Source: Euglena gracilis (lineage: Eukaryota). From it: a stretch of 64,000 bases of DNA. Every line of letters starts with the position of its first letter. The stretch's first letter is position 1. The notes beneath the pieces are model-generated. The model was not told where the DNA came from. It did no database searches and saw only the letters and a program-made list of their open reading frames with translations. Below are positions 1 to 58,396 of this stretch, piece after piece. The position numbers and the translations under genes are program-made. The stretch spans positions 42,153,572 through 42,217,571 of the forward strand of contig CP154954.1 of assembly GCA_039621445.1 (NCBI GenBank), written 5' to 3'.

Positions 1-870
1 GGTTTGAGGCCCAGGGACACCAAGGACGCTGCTGTAGGGGGGGCAGTGGGGTGGCCGGGAGCTGCGCAGGTGGGGGGCAGGCATTTGCTTAAGCACCCCG
101 GGGGGGGGGGGTACTGGCTAGCCAATCGGCTGGACACTGGAAAAAGTGGACTAGCTAGACCCCCCTCCCCCCCCCGGGGGGGGGCTGGGGGGTCTGGGGG
201 GTCTGGGGGGTCCCCTGACTGGAAAAATGAGGCTTTTAACAGGTTTTTGGCTGATTTTGTTCCAAAAATTCCCAAAAATGGCCAAAACCGGGGATTTTTG
301 GCCATTTTTGGGGGTCTCAAAAATAAATTTTGGCGCTTCGCGCCGGTCACTGGAAAAATTTTTTCCACTAGCTAGCCCTGCTAGCAGACCCCCCCCCCCC
401 CGGGGGGGTCTGCTAGAAAACCCACTAGCCAAATTTGGACTAGCTGCAGTCCAGCCCCGCCGGGGAGGGGACGTACTGCAATCCCTTAAGCAAATGCCTG
501 GTGGGGGGTGGGGGGGGGGCGGGGGCAGGGTGGCCAGAGCTGCGGAGGTTGAGGCCCAGGGTGGCCAGAGCTGAGGGGGTGGGCCCAGGGTGGCCAGGGG
601 CTTCGGGGGTTGAGCCAGAGCTGCGGGGGCCGGTGGTTCAGGCGGTGGGGCTCAGGTGGCTGTGCGTAGCACCCCCGTTCCGCGCCGGGAACCCTCGCTC
701 GGCCAGGGCGAACCGAGGCCAAGCGAGGTCATCCGGACACGGCCCGGGGGACGTTGCAGGGATGTGGAGTGGGGTGGCGACGTGGTGTCGTTGCAGGCAG
801 CCTCCTTTGCCACCACCAAAAACCAGGATTGCCAGGAGCAGTGCGGTCAGGGTGGAGTTGAGTTGATGAT
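1..870 (-). CDS. Probable Pro/Ala-rich exon(s), reading frame unresolved; interrupted by the 78-500 element
   Basis: GC-rich, low-homopolymer sequence. The unit ctgggcctcaa occurs on both sides of the insertion. One frame reads PPPAQLPATPTAPPTAASLVSLGLK. No single continuous frame could be established. Confidence 0.35.
78..500. mobile_element. hAT-like MITE / candidate young non-conventional intron (intron 73-503 on minus)
   Basis: Perfect 16-bp TIR CAGGCATTTGCTTAAG (78-93) / CTTAAGCAAATGCCTG (485-500), flanked by an exact 8-bp direct repeat GTGGGGGG (70-77, 501-508). Confidence 0.85.
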
Positions 871-1549
871 CTGCTCAAAACAAAAGAAATTTTTGGTGTT
901 GGAGATATCCTCCTTACCCATTTTTCTCTCTCTCATTCACTTGCGGAATTTACTCAATTTCCCCAAAATCCTTTAAGCAGTTGTATTTTGTGTTCATTTG
1001 CACACCTAACCCGCTGGGAAATTGTCTCCAGACAAATGACAACTCCCTAAAAAGACAGGACAGCGGAAACAGACAATTGCTTGCCGACCCACGGGGTGTC
1101 AAAACGGTCCAAAATAGGCCTTGATGGGGGTTCAAGGAGGTCTCCAAAGCCACAGCATCCTTGGGTTTCCAGTTTGCCGTGGTCTAATGGTAAGGAAAAC
1201 ATGTTGGTTGCAAGAACTGACCACATCTAGATGGGTGCATTCAACCATTTCGGTGGACATGGACCAGGTCCAGACAATTCTTTACTGATCCCCCGGGGGG
1301 GAGGGGGGGTCACTCCAACTTTTTTTTTAAACCCAGTCAGTCATTTTCAAAAAACCAGCTAATCACTACCCCCCACCCGGGGGGGGGGGGTTCGGCCACT
1401 CAGAAAGCCAAAAAAAATTTAGGCCAAAAAAATTTTCCGGCTCCTTCGGCGCCGGGGTCACTCAAGCCACTTTTGCCCACTCCTGGGGGGGGGGGGAGGG
1501 GGGTCCGGGCCAAAAACCAGTCACTCTGAAAAAACCAGTCACCCCACAG

Positions 1550-2897: not shown

Positions 2898-3290
2898 GTG
2901 GTGGCAGTCGGAGGCGCGTTGACAAACGGATGGTGGGTGGTGGCAGTCGAAGGTGTGCAAGGCGGTGGCAGTCGAAGGCGTGCAAGGCGTCGACAAAAGG
3001 ATGGTGGGTGGTGGCAGTCAAAGGTGTGCAAGGCGGTGGCAGTCGAAGGCGTGCAAGGCGTCGGCAAAAGGATGGTGGGTGGTGGCAGTCGAAGGTGTGC
3101 AAGGCGGTGGCAGGCGAAGGCGTGCAAGGCGTCGACATACGGATGGTGGGTGGTGGCAGTCGGAGGCGTGCAAGACGGTGGCAGTCGAAGGCATGCAAGA
3201 CGGTGGCAGTCGAAGGCGTGCAAGGCGGTGGCAGTCGAAGACGTGCAAGGCGTCGACATATGGATGGTGGGTGGTGGCAGCCGGAGGCGT
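2898..3290. repeat. Compound minisatellite (~25-bp GGTGGCAGTCGAAGGCGTGCAAGGC with interspersed GTCGACA(A/T)A(A/C)GGATGGTGGGT)
   Basis: More than 10 visible copies; unit length is not a multiple of 3. Confidence 0.9.
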
Positions 3291-10700: not shown

Positions 10701-13700
10701 CGAGAATTATCAGGGGACGGCATCGGAATTGGAAGAAGAATTCTAAATTTTGCAGAAAAAAATTGCCAGATAAAAAAAAATTGAACTATTACACCTAGCG
10801 CCTAAAGTTTTTGCCATGCCTGGCAAAATATTGCCCCAGTGTGACAGAATTTTACTCAAGCCAGCACAAATTTTTGCCCTGTGCCCCAAACGTATTTGCA
10901 CTTGTTCAGAAAAAATTCGCACTCCGTCATATTATCGTTACTACCCGCCCCCCCCCCCAGGGTTCGATATAAGGAGAGGAGGGGGGGGGGGGGTCCGGAC
11001 CCTGCGGGCCAGGAGGGGGGTGGGGGGGACACCCCCCCCCACCTAAACAGTGGCGCGGTCAGGGTGACCGAAAATTTTTGACCCCCAAAACGACCAAAAG
11101 GGCCATTTTGGGCACTTTTTGGGCAAAAATTGGTCAAAAATGCAAAAAAAATTCGGCGCAAAGCGCCGGAGGAAAAAATTGACCCTTTTGGGGGGGGTCA
11201 ATTTTTACCCCCCAGGGTCGGTCCGGACCCCCTTGCAGGTGGGGGGGGGTGGTTCAGACCCCCCCTGCGGGCCAGGAGGGGGGGGGTGGGGGGACACCCC
11301 CCACCTAAACCATGTACGCACTCCTTATATCGAACCCTGGCCCCCCCTTGTCGTACGACCGGGTTCCTGCAACTGATCGGGGGGAGGGGTCGTCACACCC
11401 CCATAACTTGCAACCTGTGACCAGGGGGTGGTCACAAATGAGGGGGGGTTGTAGGTAAGGTGGGGTCGCTGAGCTCTTATCCCTTTATGGGTAAGAGCGA
11501 AGCTTACCACCGTCGAAATCCCCCCCCTCCACCCCCCCCCCCTCCCCCCCCCCCCCCGGGTCGGGGCCACCTGGAGAACCGACGGATTATCACCATGATC
11601 CCGGCCCGGTTCCCGGAATTTTTTTTTTTCAGTCGCGAGCGACTGGATTCCTAGTTTCCGAATCACCTGGGTTTGACCCCCAACTCCCCGCCAGGCCCGA
11701 GTTATTCACGCGCGAAGGGGTCCAAACTCGGTAGGATTTACCCGCCCCCCCTGGATGAGCCCCCCCCCCCTTTGGAGGGCCAAAAAATGTCAATTTTCAA
11801 AATATCTCCAAAATGAAGCCAAATCAAAGGAAATGTCCGGAGACCTAATTTGAAGCCCTTGGAACGCCCCATCCACCGGTATTTTGATTTCCCCGCAACT
11901 CCCCGCCTAGCCCGAGATACGGCCGTTTTCGGCGCAGATGGCCGTTTTGTACACTTTTCCCTCTGTTCGACTTAGCCGTTTTCGGGGGGTGGGGGGTCAA
12001 AAAATCGATGTTTTCAAAATTTCTCGAAAATGATGCAAAATCAAAGGAAATGTCCGGAGACCTAAATTGAAGCCCTTGGAACGCTCTATCTACTGGGATT
12101 TTGGTTTCCCCGCAACTCCCCGCCCAGCCCGAGATACGGGCGTTTTTTTGGCCAATTTGGGCCATTTCAGGCCATTTTGTACACTTTTCCCTTGTTCGAC
12201 TTAGCGTTTTCGGGGGGTGGGGGGTCAAAAAATCGATGTTTTCAAAATTTCTCGAAAATGATGCAAAATCAAAGGAAATGTCCGGAGACCTAAATTGAAG
12301 CCCTTGGAACGCTCTATCTACTGGGATTTTGGTTTCCCCGCAACTCCCCGCCCAGCCCGAGATACGGCCGTTTTTTTTTTGGCCAATTTGGGCCATTTCA
12401 GGCCATTTTGTACACTTTTCCTTCTGTTCGACTTAGCCGTTTTCGGCCAAAAAGTCGAAAAAAATCGCAAAAATTTTTTTTGCCCAAAACGATGTTTTTT
12501 TGGCCTCCCGGACCCAGAAAAACTGTTTTTGAGCCCAAAAAGAACCTTTTTCGACCCGCCAGCCCCCCGTTTTTGGCCCCCCAACCATTTACTTTTGGTC
12601 AAAACCCGGTCAAAAAAAATCAAAAAAAAAAAAAACTGTTAAAAAAAAAAAAACGAGCGTTTTTCGACCCGCCAGCGCCCCGTTTTGGGCCGCCGACCCA
12701 TTGACTTTGGGTCAAAAAAAAAACCGGGTTGAAAAAGTCAAAAAAAATCGAAAAAATTTTTTTTGCCCGAAACGATGTTTTTTGGCCTCCCAAACCCGGA
12801 AAAACTGTTTTTGAGCCGAAAACGAGCGTTTTTCGACCCGCCAGCGCCCCGTTTTGGGCCGCCGACCCATTGACTTTGGGTCAAAACCGGGTCAAAAAAG
12901 TCGAAAAAAAATCGAAAAAAATTTTTTTTTGCCCGAAACGATGTTTTTAAAAAAAACTGTTTTTGAGCCGAAAACGAGCGTTTTTCGACCCGCCAGCGCC
13001 CCGTTTTGGGCCGCCGCCGACCCATTGACTTTGGGTCAAAACCGGGTCAAAAAAAGTCGAAAAAAATCGAAAAAATTTTTTTTTGCCCGAAACGAAACCC
13101 GGAAAAACTGTTTTCGGGCCGAAAACGAGCGTTTTTCGACCCGCCAGCGCCCCGTTTTGGGCCGCCGACCCATTGACTTTGGGTCAAAAACCGGGGTCGA
13201 AAAAGTCGAAAAAAAATCGAAAAATTTTTTTTGCCCGAAACGATGTTTTTTGGCCTCCCCAACGAAAAAAAATGTTTTTGAGCCGAAAAACGTTTTTGCG
13301 CGAGTAAAATCGAAAAGAAAAAAAAAACTATTTTAGAGAAGAAAACGAAAATTTTTCGACACGCCAGCGCCCCGTTTTGGGCCGCAGACCCATTGACTTT
13401 GGGTCAAACCCGGGTCAAAAAAGTCCAAAAAAAACAAAAATTTTTTTTTTGCCCAAAACAATGTTTTTTGACCTCCCGAAACAAAAAAAACTGTTTTTGA
13501 GCCGAAAACGAGCGTTTTTCGACCCGCCAGCGCCCCGTTTTGGGCAGCCGACCCATTGACTTTGGGTCAAAACGGGGCCGAAAAAGTCAAAAAAATCGAA
13601 AAAAATCGAAAATTTTTTTTTTGCCCGAAACGATGTTTTTTGGCCTCCCGGACCCGGAAAAACTGTTTTTGAGCCGAAAACGAGCGTTTTTCGACCCGCC

Positions 13701-16700
13701 AGCGCCCTGTTTTGGGCAGAAGACCCATGGACTTTGGGTCAAAGCCGGCTAGAAAAAGTGGAAAAATCGAAAATTTTTTTGTGCCCGAAACGATGGTTTT
13801 TGGCTCCCCGACCCGGAAGGAAAAAAAAAGAAAAAAAAGAAAAAAAAAGTAAAAAAAAAACTGTTTTTTTTTTTTTTTTTTTGAGCCGAAAACGAGCGTT
13901 TTTCGACCCGCCAGCGCCCTGTTTCTGGCACAAAACACATGGATTTCAGTCAAAAGAGCTCCATGGGGTGTGCCGGTATGTATGGAGGGGTCAATGAAGG
14001 GGTGGTTGCGCGCTTATCAAGAGCTCAGCACTATTCAAAACCTGGTTAAATTTTTCGCAACCTGCAACCTGTGACCGGGGGGGGGGTCGTAACACCCCCA
14101 TGACCTGCAACCTGTGACCGGGGGGGTGTAGTAAATGCGGGATGGTTGTACGACAAGGGGGGGGGGGCGGGTAAATGAAAAAAGTCGCATTGCACCAATG
14201 GAAAAAGATGCATTACGGCTGGAGTTTCGAAGGGTGACTGCAAAACGTGCGAAAATTTCTGAAAAAGTGTGCAAATATGCAAATTGTGCAAATGTTTTTT
14301 TGGCATAATGTGTAGATACTTTTGAGATAAAATGCAAACAAATCCCCCCACTGCCCCAGGACCCAAACTTAAAAAACCCTTGGTCAGCATCCAGTCGCCC
14401 CCAGGGTTGGGTGGGCCTCCACGGGGGGGGGGGTTGCAACCCACTGTGGGGGGGGTTAATATGGAAGCCTGGATATTTTTTGGCACTTTGCGCAAGCAAG
14501 GGAGCAAGCGAACGCCACTTTTAGCAACTCATCGCCACCCCCCCCAGACATTCATTTAGTGTGGTTCACAAAAGACGTGTGAACCACAAATTTTTTTCTG
14601 GTGTCCACAGGTGAACCACAATTTTCTTTTTGGTGTCCACAGGTGAACCACAAAAAAAATTTTGGTGTCCACAGGTGAACCACAAAAATTTTTGTGGTGT
14701 CCACAAAAATAGATTGAGGATCGAAAAAAAATTACACCTAAAGGCGGATTGATCTTTAGACACCTCAGCCACATTGTGAGCCTTGGCCCCGGCTCAATCC
14801 ACGAAGCGTGGCAGTTGAAATTGGACAGATTGCTATCGAAAGTTCTCAAGCAGACCTGCTGTATAGACAACTTACCCAACAAGGATACCATCAAAAAGTT
14901 AAGTACTGGCGTCGATGAAGCGGAATTCTGCTTCATGGAAGCAGAAACACGCGACATTATCGTGGGGGCGTTGGCATGGCTGCGGACATTGGGAGCGTTC
15001 TGGGGCATTGTGGGATGTCAGTTGAGTGCCTCAATGCCTGAAAAAGTGCCTGAAAAATCGGCAATGTGCTTTGTTTTGAGGTAGGACCCGGAAAGCCACT
15101 TCATTGCTGTGGTGTCAGATCTTCAACTTGACCGTTCAATGAAAGACCACATTCAGTATAGTTTTCCATTCAGCAGGGTAAATGTCAGCCTCATTCTGGT
15201 TTTTGCAGTTTGGCACCATGAGATAGTTAAAAAGTATTATGTCAGCTGAGGAAGCGGACAACCGCTTCATATTTGCTCTGTTTTTTTTGGAGGTTTTACA
15301 CCAATGTCATGTCGAAATGTCCTTCCAGGTGAAGCACGGGGAAGTGAACAGAAGGTATGCATTGTTTCGCCTGTTCTACCCTTTGTAGATCGTGCAATTG
15401 TCTCCATGTGGTTTGACGTATTTGCATTATGCACTTTGGATAATGCCATTCAATTTCTGTTCAGTTTGTTCAGTTTCTGTTATCTTCAAAAATTTCATGA
15501 ATGTTAACGTTCTTCGTTGTTATTGGGATTGGAATATCGTTTGGTGATCATTGTTGATCATTTCAATTCATACTATTTCTTTTACGGATTCTTTCAAAGC
15601 GGTTTTCCGCTTCCTTTTTGGTGTGCAAACAATATGCACATTTTTACATTACATTCTGTATGATTCATTGTGTTCAGTTTTTGTTGCACATCTCCTGCTT
15701 TTGAAGCGGAATGCAATATTTACCGCTTCCATTTCTTAATTTTTCTGCTTCGTTCCTTCGGGGCCTACGGCAGTAGAAACAACGCTTGTTTTTGTCGGTT
15801 CCTCCTGTTCATATATTTTTTGATTGGTTTTGTTGATTTTACTAGAATTCGAAACTAAGTTGGACTTTTTAGGTCTGTTTTCGACTGTATAGGTCTCCTT
15901 CACTGTGAGCCAAATGTCCACCAGAGTTGGCCAAAATCAGAACCTTTTCAAAAAAAAATCGAAAAATATGACCCTTTTTTGGAAGTGGTTTTCCGCTTCC
16001 TCTTCTGTTTTTAGAACACCAGAATTTTTGGCCAACTTACGCCGCCTGAGTCAAATATGTTCAAAGAAGATTGCTTCATTGCTGTTAATGAGAAAGAAAA
16101 TGATGCAAATGTCAGCAGGCAGTGGGAAATTTTTTGGTGTCCACATATGAACCACAAATATTACTTTGGTGTCCACAGGTGAACCACAAAAAAAATTTTG
16201 GTGTCCACAAATGAACCACAAAAAATTTTTTGGTGTCCACAGGTGAACCACAAAATTTTTTGTGGTGTCCACAATGAACCACAAAATGACAACCTTGGTG
16301 TACCACACTAAATGAATGTCTGACCCCCCCCCACCGCATGGTGGAGGGGCACAGCCACCCCCCATGCACCAACCAGGGTTTTTTTTTAAGACTGGGGGGG
16401 GAGTGGGATCCCCACCCACCCACCCCCTGGGGGGGGGGGTCCGGGGGACCCACAAAAAATGGCCGAAAATAGAGAAAAGTGCCAAAAATACCATTTTTGT
16501 GCGCCTTTGGCGCCGAAAAGTATATCCCACCCCCCTCCGGGGGGACCCCCCCCCCGGGGGGTGCTCGGCCAGACCCACCCGCCCTACCCCCCCCCCGGGG
16601 GGTCCACGACTAAAAAAAACCCTGGCACCAACCCCAGAGCCCCCATTGAAAGAAAGATATGAGGAGAAAACAGGGGGTGACGAACACACCGGCGCAAACA

Positions 16701-19700
16701 GGCACCACGGGCACAATGGCACGCGGTGCCCGTTCACGTCCGTCTCTTGCAGCCCGAAGCGGTGGTGGTGTGGCCACGCGCTTAATTTGTATATAATTTT
16801 GTTTTATTTTCTGAGTCTCTTTAACTTTTCGAAACTTCAGGCGCGACCGACATCAAGCTTCATAAATTCCTGTGTGAATGGGACTCAGGGGTCTTCCCAG
16901 GTTAAAAGAACCCAAACCAAAACCAAAACAAAATGAGCTTGGGGTGGAAATCCAAACCAGGGGGGCCAGGGCAACACCTTCAGACCCGACTCATTATTTG
17001 GATTTTGTTTAACAAAGCAAATAAGCGCGTGGGCGGCAGCGAGCACAGAGGGAGGAGTCGGCCACCGCGTGCAGCATCTGGATGCGCTTCGCGGTGGCCT
17101 CCTCCTCCGTCTCGACAATCCACCAATACTCACCGGCAGGCTGAGTATTGGTGGAAGGCTGCAATGAAGAGCTGTTCTTTCTCAAAGAGGGTCTTCAACA
17201 GGGACAGCAATGGAGGTGTCCTCCCCCTGCAGCTTTTGTGGATTTGGAAGGCACCCAGGGGGAAAAACCCTCACCATATGAAAACCCTCACACTCGCCAT
17301 ATTTCATCATCTTTGACCCTTTCTTCAAAACTCCAAAATTGTGTCAAATCAAACAACACCCAGCCTGCTCGAGGAGTTGGCGGATTCCACGGTAGGGGGC
17401 GGTGATGGGGCCGAAGAGCCAGTCGATCCAGGTCGGGGCAGGGTGCAGCTGGCGGTGCCCCCAGGACCCACTGGAGCGAAGGGGGCTGGGGCTGGGGTTT
17501 GACATACGGACAGGTGGGAGCTGGGGGTTAGACCGGGGGGGATCCCACCAAACAGTGGCGCGGTCTGGTGAGCGATCCGGCCCGGCGCAAAGCGCCAGGC
17601 TGAAAATGTTGCCCCTTCCCCAAAATCGGCCGAACGTGTTTCTTCCGGCACTTTTGGGCAAAATTTCTCAAACACACCAAAAATTGCCAAAAGTAACCCA
17701 TAGAAATGGAAAATTTTGACTTTGGGGGGACCCCCCCCCCCGGTCGATCCGGACTCCCTTGGCGGTGTCCGAACCCCTGATTCAGCAGGGGCAAGGATGA
17801 GTCTTGGTCTTGTATTCTTGGGGGGGTACCAAGAGTGACCCAAGATTCTTGCCCCCCCACCCAAGACCCAAGATCTTGGGTGCAGGCAATGCGAATGTGA
17901 AGAAACAAGATGCTCAACACCAAGTCTTGGCCCTTGCCATCACATGCATGATTATTTCCAATTGCTTCAATATTTCAAGGGTGTTCAGGCATGGCACACG
18001 GAGGCTCCTCCAAAAATAAGATTTGCCCTCACAACCAATGGATACGTTCAATAATCTCATCCGGTTCAAGGTCCCCCCATCCACCAGGAGGAAAACGTTC
18101 TTACTGCGCAACCTGAAAAGATATTTTTGCATGCACGGTAAAAATGAAAAAAATACCTTCGCAAAAGAACATTCTCTGCATTACTCTTGAGCGTTTCGGT
18201 TGCGGATGCTAATTCATTTCGATCCATCTTCCGTGGGATTTGAACGCCGAAGGCGTCACGGAAGGACTCATCATCCACCAATTGGTAAGGAAGCCCATTT
18301 TGTGCAAACGCAAGGACAACTTTTTCCCTTTGTTGGCGATCAACTTCGTCCTTCATTCCGAAAGCACGAATGTCCATTTGACCTGAACCCTGTTCTTCTG
18401 CAGATCCCTCAACCGAGGCAAACTCCTTGCGGTGCACATCACGGATGTGAATACGCAATCCATTTGTGGAGAAATTGGTTGCCTTGATAATCTGATTACA
18501 AGGAACTTTGGTGAGGGCACCATCAACATTTGCATCAATTTCCAATGTACACTTGTACAACTGGCCTTTCCAAGTCGCAGGTAAATCAGGCAAGGTCGTC
18601 TTATCAACGGCTTTGTAGAACTTCTTGAACACAGCCATGATAATGAGAAACCTTCTGTGACGAAAAAATTTTTCGGCCGGGGTCCCAAGACCCAAGAATC
18701 TTGTCATTCTTGGGTACCCCCCCAAGAAGCAAGATCTTGGGGGGGTACCCAAGACCCAAGACTCATCCTTGGCAGGGGCAGGGGACCCCTCCACCATACC
18801 CCCATACACCCTCTGTATATCAAACTCTGGGCTGGGGCCACACATCACCTTGCGCGGCCCTGGCCCAAAATGTGTGACAAAATGATTCTTCAAAACCCTC
18901 AGGGGCAAGGGGGGGACCCAGTGGAGGTCTCAAAAAAAAAGCCACCCCGCGACTCCCCCCCCTGTTGCAGCCACTGGGCTGCATGGGAGCGACATCCCCA
19001 CCCCATCGCAGTGTGGGGGGGTTCGACCCAACCAGGATTATTTCCCTCCCCCTCCTCTGAGGGTGTGGTTATGTTCCAATTTTTTGGAAAATAATGTGGT
19101 TCTGGTGATGGGTCATGGCATTGCTTGCAACCATAAAGCATTGCTTGGGGGAAACAGGGTCAATTTCCATCCCCCCCCCCCCGGCCGCTCAGGCCCAAAA
19201 ATCAATGTGTTTTGGGCTTTTTTTTGCCATTTTCTGGACCTCTTTTTGACCATTTCTGGCCAACCCACCAGGGGAGGAGGGGCACAAAACCGGGAAAAAA
19301 ACCACTCACTAACTGAGCACCACCCAGTGGGTCCTGTGTGGCGGACGCGCTCCTGCCGGGAGGCCTCCTGGTCCGCCTGCCGAACGGCGTCGGCGGTGAC
19401 GACGTTGGCGGCGATGGGGACCTGCGGAAGAAAAAAAAGAACAAATACTGAGGCTGAGAAACATTTTGAGGAGTTTCAGGGTTTTGGGGGGTTGCCTGAA
19501 ATTCACAAACATGGGGAACCTGGGAGCCAACCCCCCTCTACCCAGCCCAGCACAGGACAGGGGGTTCTTTTTTAAGTTGCAGGAGGGTCCGGCCGAGCCC
19601 CCCGGCCGAGCCCCCCCCCCCCCGGGGAATTATGTCATTGCTGATCGACCGGGGGGGGGAGGGGGTCACTTTCCACTTTCAAAAAACCAGTCAATCATTT

Positions 19701-22700
19701 TTCAAAACCCAGCCACCCACTTCCCCCCCCCCACCTGGCCGGGGTCAGTCACTTTGGCCACTCGGCAATCTGGCCCCGAAAATCACTCCCCCCAGGCCCC
19801 GATTTACACCAAATAAATTGCCAACATTTCACCATTGTGGGTTGTTGACCAGCAGTGGTTCTGAGTGGGGAATTTGGGGGTGGGGAACCCAGCTGACCTG
19901 GTCCCGGGGGCTGGTCGCACTTGGTCGAACCCAGCTGACCTGGGCCAAAAAAAAAGGCCAAAAATCAAATCGAAGAGATTTTGGTCAATTATTTCCAGCA
20001 ATGGACCAAAAAGGCCCGAGAGCATCATTGAGGGGGGTGGGGCATTCTTCAGTGCAAAATGGCTTGCCAGTGGACCCTCCCCCAGAGTCCTTTCGCAATG
20101 GCCTGCCCAGAAAATATCCATTTCAAAATTTTAACATTTGTCAGAAAAGGAAAAGACAAACCAGGGGGGGGAATGCGCTGGACGGCCCTCGGAACAATGC
20201 GCAAAAATGCGCAAAAAAAATGCGCAAAAAATGCGCTGAGTTTGTGACATTCCAAAGGAAAAGGACTTGGAAAAAATTCCAACAATAAACCCAAAGTTAA
20301 ACCAAAATCATCAAAAAGAGCTGAAATGAAGGCAAAAAATGCATGACCAAGGCGTCACTCTCCGTTCACCATAACCAACAACCAAAATGGCAAAATGTGC
20401 AAAATTGGGCAAAAAATGCGCAAAAATGGAAAATGTGCAAAATTGGGCAAAAAATGCGCAAAAAAAACAAAAAGTGGAGAATGTGCAAAAATGGGGGGAA
20501 AATGTGCAAAAAAATGCGCAAAAATGTGCGAATGCGCATTGTTTGAAAAATGACAAAAAATGCGCAAAAAAATGCGGAAAAATGCGCAGCGCATTCCCCC
20601 CCCCCCCTGGACGAACCCAGCCATGCACAAAAATTGACAAATTTTTCATTGATAAAAAATATGGGGCCAAGACTCCTCGAGCCACTACCCCAAGCCAATG
20701 GGGTGAAAGAAAGAGTGGGAATCAGACAAAAAAATGGGGAGAGGGTGGAGATGATGTAAACCCCCCCAAATAACGCCCCCCCCGTTGTGCTATTTGGGCA
20801 CGCGAACTGGGCCCCCAGGGGGGGGGGGTGTTATTTGGGGGGGGTGCTATTTTCACATGGAAAACCAAAGGGAAACAGGGGGGGTGTTACTTGGGCGCTC
20901 GAAATCGGCCCCCGAGGGGGGGGATGTTATTTGGGGGGGTGTTATTTTGGGGGTGGGTACCCTCACCCCCCTCAAACTTTGGGGGGGTGAGGGTAATAAC
21001 CCCCCCCAAATAACACCCCCCCCCCCTCGGGGGCCGATTTCTTATGCAAAAAATGCAAAAAAATGCAAAAAAATGCAAAAAAATGCAAATTTCGGGAAAA
21101 GCTGATTATGCAAAAAAAAATGCAAATTATGCAAGTTGCATTCCCCCCCTCCCGCTCAAAGTGGCCACCCCAAAGTGGCCAAAATTTTTGGCATTGGTTT
21201 CCCCCCCTCAAAGTGGAGGGCAGCCACATTGGGGGAGGGAGGGAGGGGGAAAGAGGGGCAAACCCGGCGGGCGAGGAGGAGCACGACGGCGGCAGAGATG
21301 GCGGCCACGGCCCGCGCTGCCCAGCTGGCTGGGGTGGGGCTGGGGCGTGGAGGCTGTTTGGCTGGGCGGCGGTGCTGGAGGCGTTCCGCTGGGGCTGTGG
21401 GGGCGGCGACGGTGCGTTGTCGGCGGTGATGTTGTCGACGACGTTGGTGTGAGGGGTGACGTTGGGGGGCTGGAAACGGACGGGGATGAAGCTGCTTGGA
21501 ATCAGAGGTTTTTGAGCGCCAGGGGGCACCCTCTGGGCACTGTTGGACCCCAAAATGGCCACTCTGGGGGGTGGGGGGGTCAAATTTTGGACTTCGGCGC
21601 CAAAAGAAAACGGCCCTTCAAGTTGGTGGGTAAACCAAAATTTGCAAAAAAATTGGCCACTTTGAGGGGGGTGAGGGTATGGGGGTATGGGGGCCGCATA
21701 CCCCCCCCCCATCATCCCCCTCCGGTTTACCGGAACCCAACCCACTTTTCCCCTGAAAAGGCCAAGAAAATCGCGAAAATGCTGAAAACAGCATTTCTCA
21801 AAAATTTTCGGCGCCGAAAATGCATCCCCCCCCCCCCGCTGGGGACCCCCCTGGGGGGGTTGGCCGGACCCATCCACCCTTCTCCCAGGCGTCCAAGACT
21901 TAAAAAAAAAAACCACCTGCCCCCCCCCCGTCCTGAACCACCCCCTATGTATTATTGGCACACTCGGTACTGATTTCTTTTGCTGAATTGCTTTTCAGAA
22001 ATCAGCGTTTGACAGGACAAAAACTAATTGCATGAAATGTGCACCCACGGCTGGCAAGAACATTTCAACCCTGTCAATTTTTTTTGGCCAGCACCGCCAA
22101 AAAAAATTGCCCAAAGGTCTCAAAAATAATTGCACTGTGCCCTCAAATATATTTGCACTCTGTCATTTTACATTTGCTCAATGAAAAAAAACCTGATATT
22201 GGACGATGGAAAAATATCCATGCCGGTTGAAGTTTCAAAGGGGGCAAATACTTTGGGGATAAGGTGCAAACATTTTTGAGACAAAATTCAAACAAGTTGG
22301 TGGCGGAAATGCAAAAGTATATGGTCTGAAGTGGAAAAATTCAGTTGTTATTTTCCAACAAAAATTTTTCCAACAAAAAAGAAAGACTGAAACTTGTTCA
22401 GCAACCGCTTAAGGCAGCCTCAGAAGGGGGCAGTGGAAGTGTATAAGAAGCTGGGAGTGCGGAAGGCCATTTGAGGCTCGCTGAGACCACACCATTGCTC
22501 GGCAGGTGGGGGGGTCACTTTCCACCATGAAAGAACCAGTCGGTCACTTTGCCCCCCCCCAAAAACCAGTCACCCATCGGGCATGGGCCACTCTTAAATG
22601 ATGAGGAGCCAATGAAATTTTGCCAAAAAGTCTCAGAAAATCCAAAAAAAAGTTCCCGCAACTTCGGCGCCAGGCCAGCCACTTTTCATTTTCGGGCCTG

Positions 22701-23813
22701 CCCCACCCCGGGGGGGGGGGGCATTCTTGGCCAGAAAACCAGTCAGTCACGGGGGGTGGGGTGGGACAGGTGTTAAGCAATGGTATGGCTGAGGGGCTCT
22801 GGCTGGGGCTCATCGAGGGGCTCTGGCTCGGGCTCGCCGAGGGGCTCGGGCTCGGGCTCGCCGAGGGGCTCTGGCTCGGGCTTGTCGAGGGGCTCTGGCT
22901 CGGGCTCGCCGAGGGGCTCTGGCTCGGGCTTGTCGAGGGGCTCTGGCTCGGGCTTGTCGAGGGGCTCTGGCTCGGGCTTGTCGAGGGGCTCTGGCTCGGG
23001 CTTGTCGAGGGGCTCTGGCTCGGGCTTGTCGAGGGGCTCTGGCTCGGGCTCGCCGAGGGGCTCTGGCTCGGGCTCGCCGAGGGGCTCTGGCTCGGGCTTG
23101 TCGAGGGGCTCTGGCTCGGGCTCGCCGAGGGGCTCTGGCTCGGGCTTGTCGAGGGGCTCTGGCTCGGGCTTGTCGAGGGGCTCTGGCTCGGGCTCGCCGA
23201 GGGGCTCGGGCTCGGGCTCGCCGAGGGGCTCTGGCTCGGGCTTGTCGAGGGGCTCTGGCTCGGGCTTGTCAAGGGGCTCTGGCTCGGGCCCGCCGAGGGG
23301 CTCGGGCTGGGGCTCGCCGAGGGGCTCTGGCTCGGGCTCGCCGAGGGGCTCTGGCTCGGGCTCGCCGAGGGGCTCTGGCTCAGGCTTGTCGAGGGGCTCT
23401 GGCTCGGGCTCGCCGAGGGGCTCTGGCTCCGGCTTGTCAAGGGGCTCTGGCTCGGGCTTGTCAAGGGGCTCTGGCTCGGGGTCAGTGAGGGGCTGTGGCT
23501 GGGGCTCATTGAGGGGCTCGGCCTCAGCAAGAGGCTCTGGCTCCGGCTCGTCTTGGGGCTGTGGCTCAGCTTCGGCCTCATCGAGGGGCTGTGGCTTGGC
23601 CTCGTCGAGGGCCAGGGGCTCATGCTCAGCAAGAGACTCTGGCTCCTGCTCATGGAGGGACTCTGGCTCGGGCTGGGCCTCGTCGAGGTGCTCTGGCTCC
23701 GGCTCGTCGAGGGGTTGGCCGAGGAGCTCTGGCTGCGGCTCGTCGAGGGGCTGGGGCTCCGGCTCAGCAAGAGGCTTTGGCTCCGGCTCGCCGAGGGGCT
23801 CTGGCTGGGCCAC
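4734..23813 (-). CDS. Multi-exon gene: Ser/Pro-rich mucin-like stalk plus multi-pass membrane domain (putative surface receptor/adhesin)
   Basis: Hand-spliced exons: 22791-23813, 22414-22482, 21368-21497, 21264-21317, 19324-19421, 17360-17470, 17157-17226, 17035-17116, 16690-16769, 10526-10597, 10067-10128, ~9379-9525, ~8750-8856, 8288-8386, 7091-7184, 6145-6242, 4875-4919, ~4734-4808. Most junctions join in frame, giving e.g. [128 protein letters not shown]. Start, end and the two junctions around 8.4-9.4 kb are uncertain. Confidence 0.7.
5342..6133. mobile_element. TA-flanked MITE (TAACCCCC..AAATAAT termini) containing a nested insertion
   Basis: Inverted ends ccccaaataat / attatttggggg; a related copy without the nested insert lies at ~26990-27320. 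Confidence 0.7.
5494..5866. mobile_element. hAT-like MITE family A copy
   Basis: TIR CAGGGTTTGATATAAGGA / TCCTTATATCAAACCCTG. Flanks aacccc(cc) resemble a TSD. Near-identical copy at 10958-11339 and a diverged copy at ~17494-17779. Confidence 0.8.
7998..8235. mobile_element. hAT-like MITE family B copy
   Basis: Begins CAGGGTTTTTTTTTAAG and ends CTG; homologous to 16374-16624 and 43066-43332. Confidence 0.65.
9526..10066 (-). other. Non-conventional intron
   Basis: acgCAGGGCGGCGCA ... TGCGCTGCCCCTGccgca; removal joins GW-T|ISPIG in frame. Confidence 0.8.
10958..11339. mobile_element. hAT-like MITE family A copy
   Basis: TIR CAGGGTTCGATATAAGGAG / CTCCTTATATCGAACCCTG; flanks G(C)n on both sides. 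Confidence 0.8.
11780..13950. repeat. Two adjacent tandem arrays: ~220-230-bp unit x~3, then ~115-220-bp unit x~9
   Basis: AAATCAAAGGAAATGTCCGGAGACCT recurs at ~11821, 12038, 12266; the CGACCCGCCAGCGCCCCGTTTTGGG core recurs nine times between 12552 and 13904. Confidence 0.9.
14545..16322. mobile_element. Non-autonomous hAT-type DNA transposon (1778 bp)
   Basis: 21-bp TIR CAGACATTCATTTAGTGTGGT / ACCACACTAAATGAATGTCTG, exact 8-bp TSD ACCCCCCC, and subterminal GGTGTCCACAGGTGAACCAC arrays at both ends. Confidence 0.9.
16374..16624. mobile_element. hAT-like MITE family B copy
   Basis: TIR CAGGGTTTTTTTT / AAAAAAAACCCTG with exact 8-bp TSD GCACCAAC (16366-16373, 16625-16632). Confidence 0.9.
16770..17034 (-). 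other. Non-conventional intron with CAC/GTG stem
   Basis: gccCACGCGCTTA ... TAAGCGCGTGgccac; removal joins LCARC|HHHRFG in frame. Confidence 0.8.
17117..17156 (-). other. 40-nt hairpin mini-intron
   Basis: Perfect 14-bp stem TCCACCAATACTCA / TGAGTATTGGTGGA; removal deletes an in-frame TGA and joins EQLFIAA|VETEEEA. Confidence 0.7.
17792..18771. mobile_element. Internally deleted hAT transposon inside a host GT-AG intron
   Basis: 16-bp TIR CAAGGATGAGTCTTGG / CCAAGACTCATCCTTG, flanking repeat GCAGGGG(C), subterminal ACCCAAGA repeats and a transposase fragment inside. Confidence 0.85.
17914..18638 (-). pseudogene. Truncated hAT-family transposase (BED zinc finger and first catalytic Asp) with a 44-nt GT-AG intron at 18113-18156
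   Basis: YKCT...VPCNQII...[13 protein letters not shown] (BED-like); [22 protein letters not shown] (hAT N-terminal motif); after splicing [18 protein letters not shown] (D-x-W/G-T motif). Stops before the remaining catalytic residues. Confidence 0.8.
20162..20609. mobile_element. CAG...CTG MITE filled with AAAATG(C/T)GC repeats
   Basis: [21 protein letters not shown] / AGCGCATTCCCCCCCCCCCCTG; flanks gacaaac(c) / gacgaacc. Confidence 0.75.
22483..22790 (-). other. Non-conventional intron
   Basis: agcCATACCATTGCT ... AGCAATGGTGTGgtctc; 8-mers outside the stem GCTGAGAC / GCTGAGGG (6/8); in-frame join. Confidence 0.8.
22791..23813 (-). CDS. Exon of 24-bp tandem repeats encoding (SPSQSPS[T/A])n
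   Basis: About 40 copies, degenerating toward 23813. The frame is supported because removing intron 22483-22790 joins SPSQSPS to [10 protein letters not shown] and the downstream exons in frame. Confidence 0.75.
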
Positions 23814-23864
23814 ATGGGCAGGGGTGGCATTGGGGAGTGCCAGCCAAGGGGAAAGGGAAGTGAT

Positions 23865-24492
23865 TAGGTTGGGGAGGGAGAGTCTACAAGGGGGTGGGAG
23901 GGCGTACCCAAGTCTAGGGGGAGGGGAGGGGAGGGCGTAGCGGAGGGGAGGGGAGGGGAGTGCGAGTCTAAGGGGAGGGGAGGGGAGGGCGTAGCGGAGG
24001 GGAGGGGAGGGGAGGGAGAGTCTAAGGGGAGGGGAGGAGAGGGCGTAGCGGAGGGGAGGGGAGGGGAGGGCAAGTCTAGAGGGAGGGGAGGGGAGGGCGT
24101 AGCGGAGGGGAGGGGAGGGGAGGGCGAGTCTAGAGGGAGGGGAGGGGAGGGCGTAGCGGAGGGGAGGGGAGGGGAGGGCGAGTCTAAGGGGAGGGGAGGG
24201 GAGGGCGCAGCGGAGGGGAGGGGAGGGGAGGGCAAGTCGAGAGGGGGGGGCGGGGGGGGCGGAGCGGAGGGGAGGGGAGGGCGAGTCTAAGGGGAGGGGA
24301 GGAGAGGGCGCAGCGGAGGGGAGGGGAGGGGAGGGGAGGGCGAGTCTAGAGGAGGGGAGGGCGTAGCGGAGGGGAGGGGAGGGGAGGGCAAGTCTAGGGG
24401 GAGGGGAGGGGAGTGCGCAGCGGAGGGGAGGGGAGGGGAGGGCAAGTCTAAAGGGAGGGGAGGGGAGGGAGCGTCGAAGAGGGGGGAGGGGG
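23865..24492. repeat. Purine-rich minisatellite (~53-bp unit of GGGGA runs punctuated by AGTCTA and GCGTAGCG)
   Basis: About 11 copies visible; strongly G/A-biased on the plus strand. Confidence 0.9.
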
Positions 24493-26632
24493 AATTTTGG
24501 AGGGGTGAGGAGCACGAATTTTTGTCAGCATGCAATTGCTCCAACAGTCAAAAAATTGTGATGAAAAAAAAATGAAAATGACTCCACTTCAGTCATTCCG
24601 ACAGCCAAAAAAAATGTGATAAAAAACAAAACAAAAAATGAACGATGAAACACCAAGAAATCATCACCAATGCTTTATGGTCACCCAAGGAAAAATTTTC
24701 ATGAAGGAACTGATCCCAATTTTCTGCAAAAGTGAAGCAACTGTGTGGCTGGTTTGCTGGCAAAGTCAGCAGGGGGGTGGGGACTGCCAGGTGGGGGGGC
24801 GCTGCGGGGCTGCGCTGCCACTCCACCTGTGAGACAGGAATGAAACGGAAGCAATGGTGATGTCATTGGTTGCCCTAGATGCCATGCCCCCCAAATTGGT
24901 GGGGGGGGGGGCAAAAAAAGAGTAGACAGTGATATTAGAATTGCCAAAAATGAAAAATTTGCACCAAACTGCCCCAGGGTGCTAGATTGCCCCCCCCCCG
25001 CTTCGCGAATCAGGGACCCCACCGGGAGGACTGGGAGGGAAAAAATGAGGGAAAAATCAGCAGAATGTTGCAAAAAATCACACAAATGGATGAAAGTAAA
25101 AATTGGTGTAGGAAATGCGCCAAATCCCCATTTTTTTAAAAAAGGCCAAAAGAAAGTGTTCAATCTGAAGACGACAAGTCAATCTGTAAGGAATCCAAAG
25201 ACGACAACAAGGTCCAGCACTCCACTACAGCATTGCCACTGTCACCACCACTGTCATTGTCACTGCACTGCCGCTGCCTGCACTGTCATGAAGACGGCTC
25301 CCCATCCCCGATCCAGTACACCACAACCCCCTTTCCAAACGAGCCATTTTGTGAGCCAAAATGACGCCACCCCCAAAACCCAAAACCTCCAACACTCAAA
25401 AGATCAAGAAAGATGTTTTGAATACGTTGAAAAAGAAAGACCAAATTAACACTTTGAAGGCGCATCGAAAACCATCATGGTAAACTGTGTTGTTCTGGTG
25501 AACTTCAAAGAAGAGACAGGTCCACCCCCCAGACTAACCAAGTTGGGTCTGGCTTTTTCGAGACATTCACCTTGGATAATTCGTTCCCATGACTGGGAAC
25601 TGGGCAGAGAAAGTTGCAAGGAAAGTGCTGGAATCCCCCGGTGCCACCCATCGCTGGATTCTGCTTGATGATTTGCCTTAAATCAGTGGCTCTGACTGTT
25701 CAGAGGGTTTCGCAACAAAACTGAAGGGCATCACGCAACTTCAGACATGTGCCACAAAAAGGCCTTCAGGTGGTGATTTATCGATTGTATTTCCTTGACT
25801 GGACGAAATCTATGAAGATTTCAAACTGAGCCGCGCTGCTCTTCTTCCGTTGGGGTGGAACATGTCACAAAATTGTGGAGAGGCAAATCACTATGCGCTG
25901 CAGTAGCAGTGCCGTGCCATGCAGTGGAGCGGGAGTGCCATAACAATGAACTGGCAGCAGCAATGCAGTGGGTTTTCAGTGGTTTTCGTTTCAAAACGAG
26001 GAATGACAGTGGTGGTGCAGCGCAATGGCACTGGCAGTGCAGTGCAGTGGCAATTCAGAATGGACTTGCCAACAACTGGTGGTGTCAGCTGGAAATTCCA
26101 AAATGCAAGTTCTTGCTGTTTCATGCCGGCTTTATGATGGTTGGGGATCTCTTGCGCTGATCAAGGGCAACCAGGACAACCTCAATTTTTTTGCAATAAA
26201 AAATTCACGGAGACAAACAAATTCAAAGTGACAAACAAAGCAAGAGCACACCAGCAGAGTGTTGTTCAAGATGAAGAAGAGGAAAAAATATCCCATGGCT
26301 TGATTGCGTAGTGCCAAATTCTGTTCGCGTAGTAAACGTAGAGCGATCCTCGGGCCTACCCAGAGAGCAGTTCTGATATCAATTCTGATGAATTAGGAAT
26401 ACCGAGATTCGTGTTCCGCGATTTTAGCGAGCCCCCGGCCCGAAACCTACATAAGAGGAGATCCAAGAAAGCATCAAGCAAGAAACAAACAAGCACAGTA
26501 TGAAACAGATCAAGATACAGTGCCGCGGACACTTTGACACTTCTTGAGTCCTCCAGACCACCAACAGTGTCCCTTCATCCAAATATATAACGTCCTCGTA
26601 CCATGACTACCTGAACTATCTTCTATGTTCAC

Positions 26633-48500: not shown

Positions 48501-51500
48501 TGGGTACCTGCTGTGGGAGGGCTGCCATGCCTGTTCGGAACCGACGACCAGTCCGGTAACCCAACGGCGACACCAGATGTTTCCCAGCGTTTGTTGTCCC
48601 CAAAACCTTCGGGGCGTTGCTTGCGCCCGGCAACAAGCCCCGGGGCTCCGCCGATGCCCCCGTTCAACCCCCAGAAACGGAGTGGCACGTCTGTCCCTGC
48701 CCCCGCGCCACTGGGGCCTGGCGGGGGGCCCCAGCGTCCCTGGCTGTCCCGGCTGGCAGTCCTGGCCGGGCCCCCACTCCCCCTGCCCCCTCCTCCCCCA
48801 CTCACCGGTCAGCGTGGGGGCCCGCCGCCGGCCCCCGCTGACGCGGGCGCTGAACGAGACGGCCCAGCAGTGGGGGGTGGACCCCTGCGGGGCGGACGAG
48901 GTCTTGGCCCGGCGGCCCCGGCGAGGGGTCCACTGTTTACTGTTTGCCAAACGTTTTTCCGTATGGGGGGGGGGCAGTGGCTGGGGTTGGGCGGGACTGG
49001 GCCCGCCGGCGGTCGGTGGCGTACGGCCCCGTCCCCAGCCTCGGCCTAGGGCTGGTCGTGTACCGCAACGCCTCCGCCGGGCGGGCGGCGGTGACGGCGG
49101 CGCTGGCGGGGACGTTTGAGCAGCTGAACCAGGACCCGACCCGCGAGGAGAAGCTGTTCCTCGTGGAACCTGCAGGGGCCTCCCTTTGTTCGCAGCTATC
49201 ATCGTATTGTGGATATAGGGCATTGGGGGCAGTGCCTTTTTGTATTGCTTTGTTGCCAGGGGATTTCTTACCCCCCCCCCCCCCGGGCAATTGACGCCCC
49301 CGGGCAATTGTCACCCCCCTCTGTGCCGGCCAAATTGTCACCCCGGGAAATTGTCACCCCCCTCAGTGCTGCCCGATTTGTCACGCAACAATTGCCCGGG
49401 GGGGGGGGGGTGAGCCGGAGGGGTCCAGACACAGAGCCAGCCAAGCCACCCAGCTCAAATCCAGCCAGCAGCCCAAATTCGGGCTGGAATCCCCGGGGGG
49501 GGGGGGGGGCGAGTGAAATAAAGCCGGGTCCAGCCCGGCCAGAGTCCGGGCCAGCCGGCTGCAGGCTGGCCAGCCAACTGGGCTGCCCAGATAGGTCACC
49601 TATCCCTGCATTCCCCCCCCCCCCCCTCACCACAGCTTCCTCCACCACAGCCCCCCAGCCTTGATCTAGCTCCATCCACCAAAATGTCGAAAATGGCAAA
49701 AAATTTAGAAAATTTTGTTTTTCACTGACCCAGCCCAGCCTCCTCCAGTCCCGGACCCCCCCCCCCCCGGGAGGTCCAGCCAGCCAGCTCAAATCCAGCT
49801 AGCAGCCTTTTTGCCAGCCGGAGGCTGGACCCCCCCCCCCCCGGGGGTGCTTAAGAAATCCCCTGTTTTTGTTGCTTTAAAATTTTGTTTTTGTCCTTTT
49901 CTCTTTCACCCACCAATTTTCTGTGTTGTGCTGGGAAGGAAAATTACAAATACTTCACATCCCCTCATTTTTTTTTTTAAGTTGAAGCCAATTTTGTCAT
50001 GGTTGGCCCCCCTAAAAAAGAAGGTTTCCAATTCGGTTCGCTGTTTTGGTTGTTTTTTTTTGCCACTGCCCTTTTCAAGGTCTGCTGAGGTGCTCAAAGC
50101 AGAACGATGCGGCCCCGGTTCAACTCTCCCAGGGATGGATGTGTCCGCTGCCTGACCCCAGCCAGCGCCGCCTTTTCAGTGTTGCGAACTCGCTGCAGGG
50201 TATTGATTCCCTGATACCTTTTCACCCAATCCCGGTGGAGGACACAACTTTCATGCTTCCTCTGGCGATCTGCCAAGGTTTAGACCGTGCTTTCCTCTTC
50301 CTTCCAACCAAAGGTATTGGAAACAGCCCTTGCTCTGTAAAGGGTTCAGGAGAGTATTGGGAGACATACATATGTGCCTGTCCGAGAGGACACCGTCGCT
50401 GTTGTCGTCGGTGTGCGTGGACGAATGCGATGGCGACCCACCGAATGGCTCGGCTCCCAACCGGGGCTTGAAGCAGGCGCTTTCCCGCTCGCAACACAAA
50501 ATGGGGTGGGTTGGGCCGGCCCGCTGGGCCCACTGGGGTATGGGCCAGGTGAGGGGGATTTGCTTCAAAAACAGATTTTGTGGTTGCGTTTTTTTGCACA
50601 GGTCGTTCAAGCCCCAGTGCGGGGTGGGGTGGGAGCCGCCAACCAGCCCCCCCCCCCCCCCAGCGGTTTCCAACGGCTTTGGTGGGGGATGGAAACATGT
50701 GATGGGCCGTTAAAGAGACCTGTTTTGGATAATCCCATGGGTCCCATGAATCCCCTCAGCTTAATTTCAAATCTGTTTGCAGATCGTTGTTTTGACGGTT
50801 TTTGCAACACCTCATCCCTGCATTTCTCAGCGTTGCTGCATTTCATGTGGACAGCACATCCTCGAAAACATTGTGTCAGGTCTTGAGCTTCTCGGAGGGA
50901 AGTGAGTTTTTTGAAGAAAAAAAATGCACACAGAGCCCAAAGTGGAATTTTGAATCCCATTCGCAAACAGAGGTTTTGTGTGTTGTTTGTTTTGATTTCA
51001 TTTTTTTGTGTTTTTTTTTTAATTTGGGGAATCAACCCCCCGCCAGTCATGCAGATGCTCTTTCAACTTGAAAAAGAGTACATACGATGAAGTTGTGGCT
51101 GTTTATTTATTCCAGGGGATTGTTTGGGTGCAAACAACAGCTGTGCCCACAACACCAGCAGAACGTCACCTGAGAAATGAAGAAGAGTTTGTGGAATTGC
51201 ACGGTGATTTTCCAGAAGGACGGAAAAAAGGGATTTTCCAGAAGGAAGGGGGGGAGTGTGGGGTGACAGTGGGGGGGAGTGTGGGGGGTAAGTGTGGGGT
51301 GACAGTGGGGGGGAGTGTGGGGGGGAGTGTGGGGTGACAGTGGGGGGGGGAGTGGGGGGGAGTGTGGGGTGACAGTGGGGGGGAGTGTGGGGGGTAAGTG
51401 TGGGTGGGTTGGTGGGTCTGCTGGATCCCTCCCCCCTGGGGGGAGGTTGACTGGGCAGCCTGCCAGAGTTTTCCTCCATTCTCGGCAGGAAAGTGCCGAG

Positions 51501-57658: not shown

Positions 57659-58330
57659 TTTTTCTTTTTTTTTTTTTTTTTTGCCTTGCCCCTTGCCCTG
57701 GGCCCGTGGACACCGCCGGGTGGGGGACTGGGTGGGGGGAGGGCAGCCCCTGTCTCAGCATCATTTTCCCCTTTGGGGGGCGCTTTGGGGGGGCGTTGGG
57801 GCCGCTGTTTCCGCCGCCCGTGTCCCCCTGGGGGCGGCGGGGGCGTTGTGGGGGGCGGCCTCCCGCCGGCAGCAGCTGCTGACCTTCCTGGACCGGATGT
57901 ACCCGGCGTCCGTTGGCCAGCCTGCCGGTCACAAGCCAGCCCTCCTCAGCCGCAAAATCCACCCCTACCCCTTTCCCCAGGCCAATGATCAAACCTGTGT
58001 TTGCAGGAAGAGGATGATCAACGGATGAAGTGTGCCAAAAATGTCCTACAGCAAACGGGCAGCACCGCACCGCACAACAGCGTCGCCCACACTGCCCCCG
58101 TGACCGGCCGCCTGCCGTTGCCCGGGACCTCATCCTGACGCGGCCGCGGTGCGGTGGTATGATCAGCTTCATGGTGGCGGTGCCCCACGCCTCCGTCGTG
58201 TTCGCGGACATCCACGGCTTCACCAGCACCTGCCACCGCCTCACCGCGCAGCAGCTGATGGCCGGGGCTGCCCCAGTTCCAATGCGCTTTTCGTTCTCTG
58301 GCCTCCATCTGGCCCAAAGCCTTCCTGATG

Positions 58331-58396
<66 letters not shown>

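Follow-up and report, generated by a model that had tools for sequence, protein, structure and literature searches.

Close to the left end of the 64-kb stretch of DNA analysed here (the window) lies a discrete element of 423 bp and 57% G+C (positions 78–500), which a scan for terminal inverted repeats (TIRs) and target site duplications (TSDs), a fold prediction and DNA word depth mark as a non-autonomous MITE. Its ends are a perfect 16-bp TIR: the left arm CAGGCATTTGCTTAAG (78–93, plus strand) and its exact reverse complement (485–500, minus strand) were recovered as an inverted-repeat pair without mismatch, the arms agreeing at 16/16 positions across a spacing of 391 nt, with pairing ending beyond 16 bp. 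Immediately outside stand two identical copies of the 8-bp TSD GTGGGGGG (70–77 and 501–508; 8/8 as a direct repeat). Identical 8-mers shared by the left and the right flank make up no more than 18 of 9310 pairs (0.19%) in this G-rich setting, and GTGGGGGG is therefore unlikely to be a chance duplication even locally. The perfect TIR and TSD on which the preliminary description had built its transposon insertion were thus recovered in full, and with them the insertion itself. A G-rich minisatellite surrounds the element on both sides. The one gene with a recognizable protein family lies at the far end of the window: among 318 ORF queries (14 + 4 + 300), Pfam returned only Guanylate_cyc, at 58521–58799 and 59893–60597, which identifies a class III adenylate/guanylate cyclase gene of at least four exons on the plus strand (58120–60597). 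An Rfam search of the whole window gave no match.

The element is non-coding and shorter than 1 kb, the ORFs that cross it being translated C and G runs. Its interior consists of C-run/G-run palindromes together with a perfect 17-bp hairpin (271–287/296–312). C-run/G-run palindromes of this kind (C8–14 followed by G7–14) are encountered throughout the window, mostly within MITE-like repeats. In the predicted RNA fold the paired ends close the element (ΔG −241 kcal/mol; z −4.9 relative to 100 shuffles), and the MFE and the centroid structure both contain the terminal stem. A second full copy of the 423-bp element was not found in the 64-kb window. Its abundance is evident from the contigs of the DNA run X1 placed on positions 1–2400, where word depth amounts to 0.6–2.3 million over 81–480 and to about 120–250 on unique stretches (e.g., 881–1040 and 1841–2080). 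The element interior is thus 10^3 to 10^4 times deeper than unique flanking sequence, a ratio that is not itself a copy number but points to a family of thousands of copy-equivalents at a likeness of at least 93%. One X1 contig spans 1–105 and enters the element by 28 nt, the bridging threshold being 31 nt. The copy at 78–500 differs from the majority letter of the X1 depth at 13 or more positions (13 of the 17 variant positions listed), and since the majority depth carries other letters at those positions, this copy is not identical to the dominant form of the family. The age that had been assigned to the insertion, ‘very young’, had nothing but the intact TIR and TSD behind it, and it is not supported further.

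Several further sequences in the window carry ends of the same type. Positions 80–111 of the element are 29/32 identical to 49862–49832, at the end of a related element of 609 bp (49257–49865) that bears the TIR CAGGGGATTTCTTA on both arms and has TTTGTTGC in common between its flanks, the right one offset by 2 nt. The 22-mer that forms the end at 49865 is found exactly at 49844–49865 (minus strand) and with three mismatches at 49257–49278 (plus strand); it had no match among the metagenome contigs scanned. Another relative, of 835 bp (60805–61639), combines a TIR of 11/12 with the TSD ATGCATAC (8/8), and its right arm agrees with CAGGCATTTGCTTAAG at 13/16 positions. By these end and arm matches, the kinship with the 49865 end and the 60805 TIR noticed at the outset stands. 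Scanning the window for CAG...CTG pairs at a TIR threshold of at least 11/12 yielded 23 pairs, four of them with a TSD of 8/8 (78–500, 14545–16322, 16374–16624 and 60805–61639) and one with 7/8 (10958–11339); the TIRs of 10958–11339, 14545–16322 and 16374–16624 match at 12/12 positions. The interiors of these last three are unrelated to that of 78–500, and two of the three sit in C runs. At a TIR threshold of at least 10/12, a TSD of at least 7/8 accompanied 6 of 615 pairs, while 20 Markov-shuffled windows gave 0–2 such cases, and displacing the compared 8-mers outward by 20 nt as a control left 0 matches among the 615. Apart from 78–500, the 64 kb contain another five CAG...CTG elements that carry duplications of 8 bp, and C or G runs served as target sites in three of these six elements.

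CAG...CTG ends combined with 8-bp duplications are the signature of hAT-like MITEs. Elements of the hAT superfamily duplicate 8 bp of their target, and their TIRs conform to YARNG. The TIR of the 78–500 element starts with CAGGC, the first four bases of which fit this form and the fifth of which (C, not G) does not. An autonomous partner with matching TIRs was not found in the window. An ORF of 287 aa on the minus strand (18069–18929) displays a Cys/His pattern resembling that of a BED finger, and gave Atlas leads to zf-BED, DBD_Tnp_Hermes and ZBED1 clusters with scores of 0.86–0.90; it gave no Pfam match even at E 10, no PDB match and no flanking TIR pair. This ORF may represent the relic of a hAT transposase. 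That the element at 78–500 belongs to the hAT superfamily is therefore inferred.

A separate matter is the sequence that received the element. The preliminary description had taken the flanks to be exon-like and the element to be a putative whole intron, and the main alternative to a plain insertion is indeed that 78–500 is a genuine, recent nonconventional intron. The minisatellite would then be part of a coding or UTR exon, its gene having very weak or no expression in the RNA sampled, and the element would be removed from the pre-mRNA together with one TSD copy. Judged from shared motifs, the left flank (1–69, 53% G) represents a divergent repeat unit of the G-rich minisatellite, and the right flank (509–640, 58% G) is that minisatellite proper, with a period of ~31 bp and several genomic copies according to TRF and DNA depth. 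TRF delimited an array at 515–614 (period 31, 2.8–2.9 copies), and TTGAGGCCCAGGG occurs at 4–16 and again at 549–561, the two flanks together being a degenerate tandem repeat. Since the period of 31 bp is not a multiple of 3, no reading frame is kept along the array. X1 DNA depth on 561–800 is 1000–1900, some tenfold the value on unique stretches. Pfam recognized no family in the ORFs at 614–973 (plus strand) and 641–874 (minus strand), and a comparison with 5.8 billion proteins gave no relative of the plus-strand ORF at 444–863. When the minus-strand ORF at 641–874 (78 aa) was run through a complete HMMER search, only two matches were returned, a low-complexity repeat protein (P0003) and a 99-aa ORF from a different contig with similar sequence (P0002). 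The latter aligns to 732–544 at 94% in one frame, with a Cys at the stop codon of the window, and then to 757–641 in another frame; given this alignment in two frames, the P0002 contig must hold the 544–757 block twice in tandem. The tandem arrangement on another contig and the tenfold depth together identify the ‘exon-like’ flank as a low-copy repeat. The sole gene-like feature is a TM-like stretch in the minus-strand ORF at 641–874, following a pyrimidine tract and a CAG at ~870, and this ORF stops at 638–640, upstream of the element. When the element was removed in silico, plus-strand frame 0 (1–863) and all three minus-strand frames were open across the restored junction, in favor of an intron; we estimate that open frames at such a junction are to be expected by chance in DNA of 68% G+C, at ~0.08 per frame. 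Exon status of the flanks is thus not supported; they are a multicopy 31-bp minisatellite that belongs to no protein family and has no homologue outside the same genome.

Tandem repetition is seen at other places of the window as well. An array of four copies of a 71-bp unit with 93% matches extends over 2916–3252 and is overlapped by a looser array with a 25-bp period (2939–3252). At 22544–24524, several frames of both strands stay open along ~2 kb of tandem repeats, and the ORFs reach 583 aa, with PSQSPS and PEPEPL repeats among others; this stretch could either encode a repeat protein or be satellite DNA.

RNA sequencing data speak to the same alternative. Reads from X21 and X22 (12.9 million each) and X24 (8.3 million), ~5–6% of each run, were mapped to positions 1–2400; species label alone guided the choice of runs, with growth conditions unspecified, and the left flank measures only 69 nt. 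With this sample, and on 2.4 kb that include no expressed control locus, depth was 0 in all nine 80-nt bins of 561–1280 for X21 and X22; in X24 it did not exceed 0.61 over the same interval. The reads on 1–2400 numbered 678, 372 and 231, of which 677, 371 and 224 lay only partly on the stretch, and 92–99% of the reads ran on into unlike sequence. RNA peaks at 481–560 and 1441–1520 (503–525 and 1485–1503) coincide with poly-G runs and consist of reads with long poly-G loose ends; they most likely represent a sequencing artefact rather than expression. A joint skipping the element was absent from the 15 joints listed, 266 further joints existing. The expectation of transcribed flanks from which the element is removed in RNA-seq has thus failed within the sampled data, in which no transcription of the flanks was detected. 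The near-absence of reads weighs the more against an intron as there are about ten similar copies of the flank, and expression of any of them at a likeness of at least 93% would have shown. On the other hand, sampling of the three runs was thin and leaves room for a rarely expressed gene.

What keeps the intron alternative alive is the geometry of the element ends. Knock-in genetics has defined the code of Euglena nonconventional introns as 5’-N3CDG-/-CH’GN5-6 before R, with D and H’ complementary (PMC12501133). According to the same study, the 5’ spacer is fixed at 3 nt and the 3’ spacer is 5–6 nt long, the exon preferably begins with a purine, C in that place having given an unstable transcript, and pairing adjoining CAG and CTG is required for splicing. 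Two reviews likewise describe euglenid nonconventional introns with CAG at +4 to +6, CTG at −8 to −6, paired ends and TSD-like repeats at the junctions (PMC11282704, PMC3935182). Applied to the plus strand, the code predicts a nonconventional intron at 75–505 (GGG-CAG...CTG-GTGGG) followed by G at 506, with all sequence features of the code in place, and the stem of 78–500 provides 13 further perfect pairs beyond CAG/CTG. The removal span proposed earlier, 73–503 on the minus strand (CAC-CAG...CTG-CCCCC), likewise comprises 3 nt, the element and 5 nt, i.e., the element plus one TSD copy. This 3-nt/5-nt geometry agrees with the Euglena code, and that part of the proposal stands; the strand is less fortunate, as the next base is C, a disfavored pyrimidine, at the exon start on the minus strand and G on the plus strand. 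Reading the minus strand with an N6 spacer would place A at the exon start but remove 432 instead of 431 nt. On paper, then, the copy at 78–500 would be splice-competent, and nothing in its plus-strand sequence forbids splicing.

A candidate of the same build is found in the cyclase gene, and it lends the intron alternative further support. The sequence 57918–58114 starts with CAG, ends with CTG and is flanked by direct repeats that agree at 7/8 positions (CCGTTGGC and CCGTTGCC); extended by the spacers it becomes a candidate nonconventional intron of 205 nt on the plus strand (57915–58119; GGC-CAG...CTG-CCGTT, followed by G) with 10/12 pairing beyond CAG/CTG. Of 14 in-frame boundary pairs resembling the code, it is the only one in which CAG and CTG are complementary, the spacer is N5, a purine follows and pairing reaches 10/12. 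Once it is taken out, the open frame ending at 57914 continues in phase into the frame starting at 58120; the unspliced frame meets a stop 34 codons upstream of 58120. A P-x-x-V-A motif usually precedes cyclase catalytic domains of this class. Here the motif is present in both readings, and for this reason it does not discriminate between the spliced and the unspliced form. Taken together, 57915–58119 likely is a working nonconventional intron of the same build as 78–500, as far as can be judged from boundaries, pairing and reading frame. Elsewhere in the gene, we read a GC-AG intron at 58261–58604 and a GT-AG intron at 58770–59998 (both plus strand) from the sequence. Exon 3 is read in another frame than exon 4, and no AG occurs in the ~130 nt before exon 4, which is why the intron between them is probably non-canonical; no code-conforming boundary pair with pairing above 7/12 could be enumerated between these two exons. 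Together with the GC-AG intron and the code-conforming candidate, this exon pair would fit a euglenid as the host or, with lower probability, a diplonemid (PMC12621601). Exon 1 aligned weakly with the C1 domain of adenylyl cyclase V in the PDB (E 0.1), and the frame upstream of it gave chance matches only in the PDB. In protein searches exon 1 had no match, and the only match to the cyclase exon was an unspliced genomic ORF (P0001).

Weighing these lines of evidence, we regard it as quite probable that 78–500 is a hAT-like MITE residing in a non-exonic minisatellite, intergenic or at most deep in an intron or UTR, and hence an ordinary insertion and not a working intron. The target being a minisatellite and not an exon is what makes the element an ordinary insertion at this locus, and as an intron it probably does not function. 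We accordingly consider a genuine recent intron improbable: the exact N3-CAG...CTG-N5 geometry with a plus-strand purine and a 16-bp stem (PMC12501133), the open junction frames, the cyclase candidate and the MITE origin proposed for such introns in reviews (PMC3935182, PMC11282704) all speak for it, but they are set against RNA depth of zero or close to it with no skipping joint among those listed, a 31-bp-period flank devoid of protein family and homologue, and a minus-strand exon that would begin with C.

A further alternative is an introner, as the term is applied to green algae and dinoflagellates, in which the spliceosome would remove the transposon via GT...AG sites provided by element and TSD. 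The TIR and TSD build does resemble that of introners as described in PMC11282704, and by our reading the minus strand offers a GT at 476–475 and an AG at 89–88 within the element, the use of which would leave 42 extra nt. The boundaries themselves, CA..CC for 73–503 and GG..GG for 75–505, are neither GT...AG nor GC...AG, internal sites would leave 42–51 nt of the element in the RNA, and spliced reads were lacking among the joints listed. The TSD of 8 bp also exceeds the 3 bp of Micromonas introners and the 3–5 nt of Amoebophrya elements reported there (PMC11282704). With such boundaries, and with internal sites that retain element sequence, we rejected a spliceosomal GT-AG reading of 78–500, and the introner explanation appears highly improbable. 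Hardly more credible is the notion that nothing mobile is involved and that both kinds of repeat, inverted and direct, arose by chance in G/C-rich DNA of low complexity: although G/C runs yielded 58 inverted-repeat pairs in 1.6 kb, the TIR is a 16-mer of mixed composition for which the window should contain 0.72 matches with up to three mismatches by expectation, the TSD has a local chance of 0.19%, the terminus is shared with relatives, the interior has very high DNA depth, and the Markov controls gave 0–2 cases versus the 6 observed.

Returning to the ordinary MITE insertion, the sequence of events might have been as follows. The MITE would have inserted by a cut-and-paste mechanism into a G run of the 31-bp-period minisatellite, and the two TSD copies would now supply both spacers of the splicing code (3 + 5 = 8). 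Were the plus strand transcribed, the splicing machinery would remove the element together with one TSD copy, restoring the RNA to its state before insertion. Although tentative, and in our estimation somewhat more apt to be wrong than right, a broader notion may be formulated on this basis: CAG...CTG MITEs with 8-bp duplications could be a living source of nonconventional introns, the 3- and 5-nt spacers being the footprint of the TSD, with 78–500 as a latent intron, excised upon any transcription of its plus strand, and 57915–58119 as an older, working example. If this were true, any copy landing in transcribed sequence would constitute a removable intron from the outset.

Insertion of MITEs has been put forward as the source of nonconventional introns in PMC3935182 and PMC11282704, the former stating in 2013 that no transposon had yet been identified in any euglenid genome. 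In 2025, the origin of these introns was still called unclear and MITE-like elements were suspected, according to PMC12501133. Within the collection of papers searched, we found no publication joining Euglena, hAT, transposon and intron, and the link of the 3- and 5-nt spacers to an 8-bp duplication was likewise not found in the text examined. In print since 2013, the hypothesis of a MITE origin becomes concretely testable, because the window holds intact, free-standing elements with exactly the end geometry of the code. To this, the copy at 78–500 contributes an example at the sequence level and not a demonstrated intron.

With respect to known systems, MITEs of the hAT superfamily are similar to the element at 78–500 in their 8-bp TSD, short TIRs starting with CAG, length below 1 kb, absence of coding capacity and very high copy number. 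The element deviates from them in the fifth TIR base (C), in an interior made mostly of C-run/G-run palindromes and in target sites that are C or G runs in three of the six elements. The introners of Micromonas, Aureococcus and dinoflagellates are, according to PMC11282704, also transposons that bear a TIR and a TSD and may give rise to an intron upon insertion; unlike 78–500, with its non-GT/AG boundaries and 8-bp TSD, they use spliceosomal GT-AG sites built in part from a short TSD. Euglenid nonconventional introns differ from 78–500 in being seen in transcribed genes and removed from RNA, and a minus-strand exon at 78–500 would start with C; they share with it the positions of CAG and CTG, the paired stem, the junctional direct repeats and, on the plus strand, the purine at the exon start.
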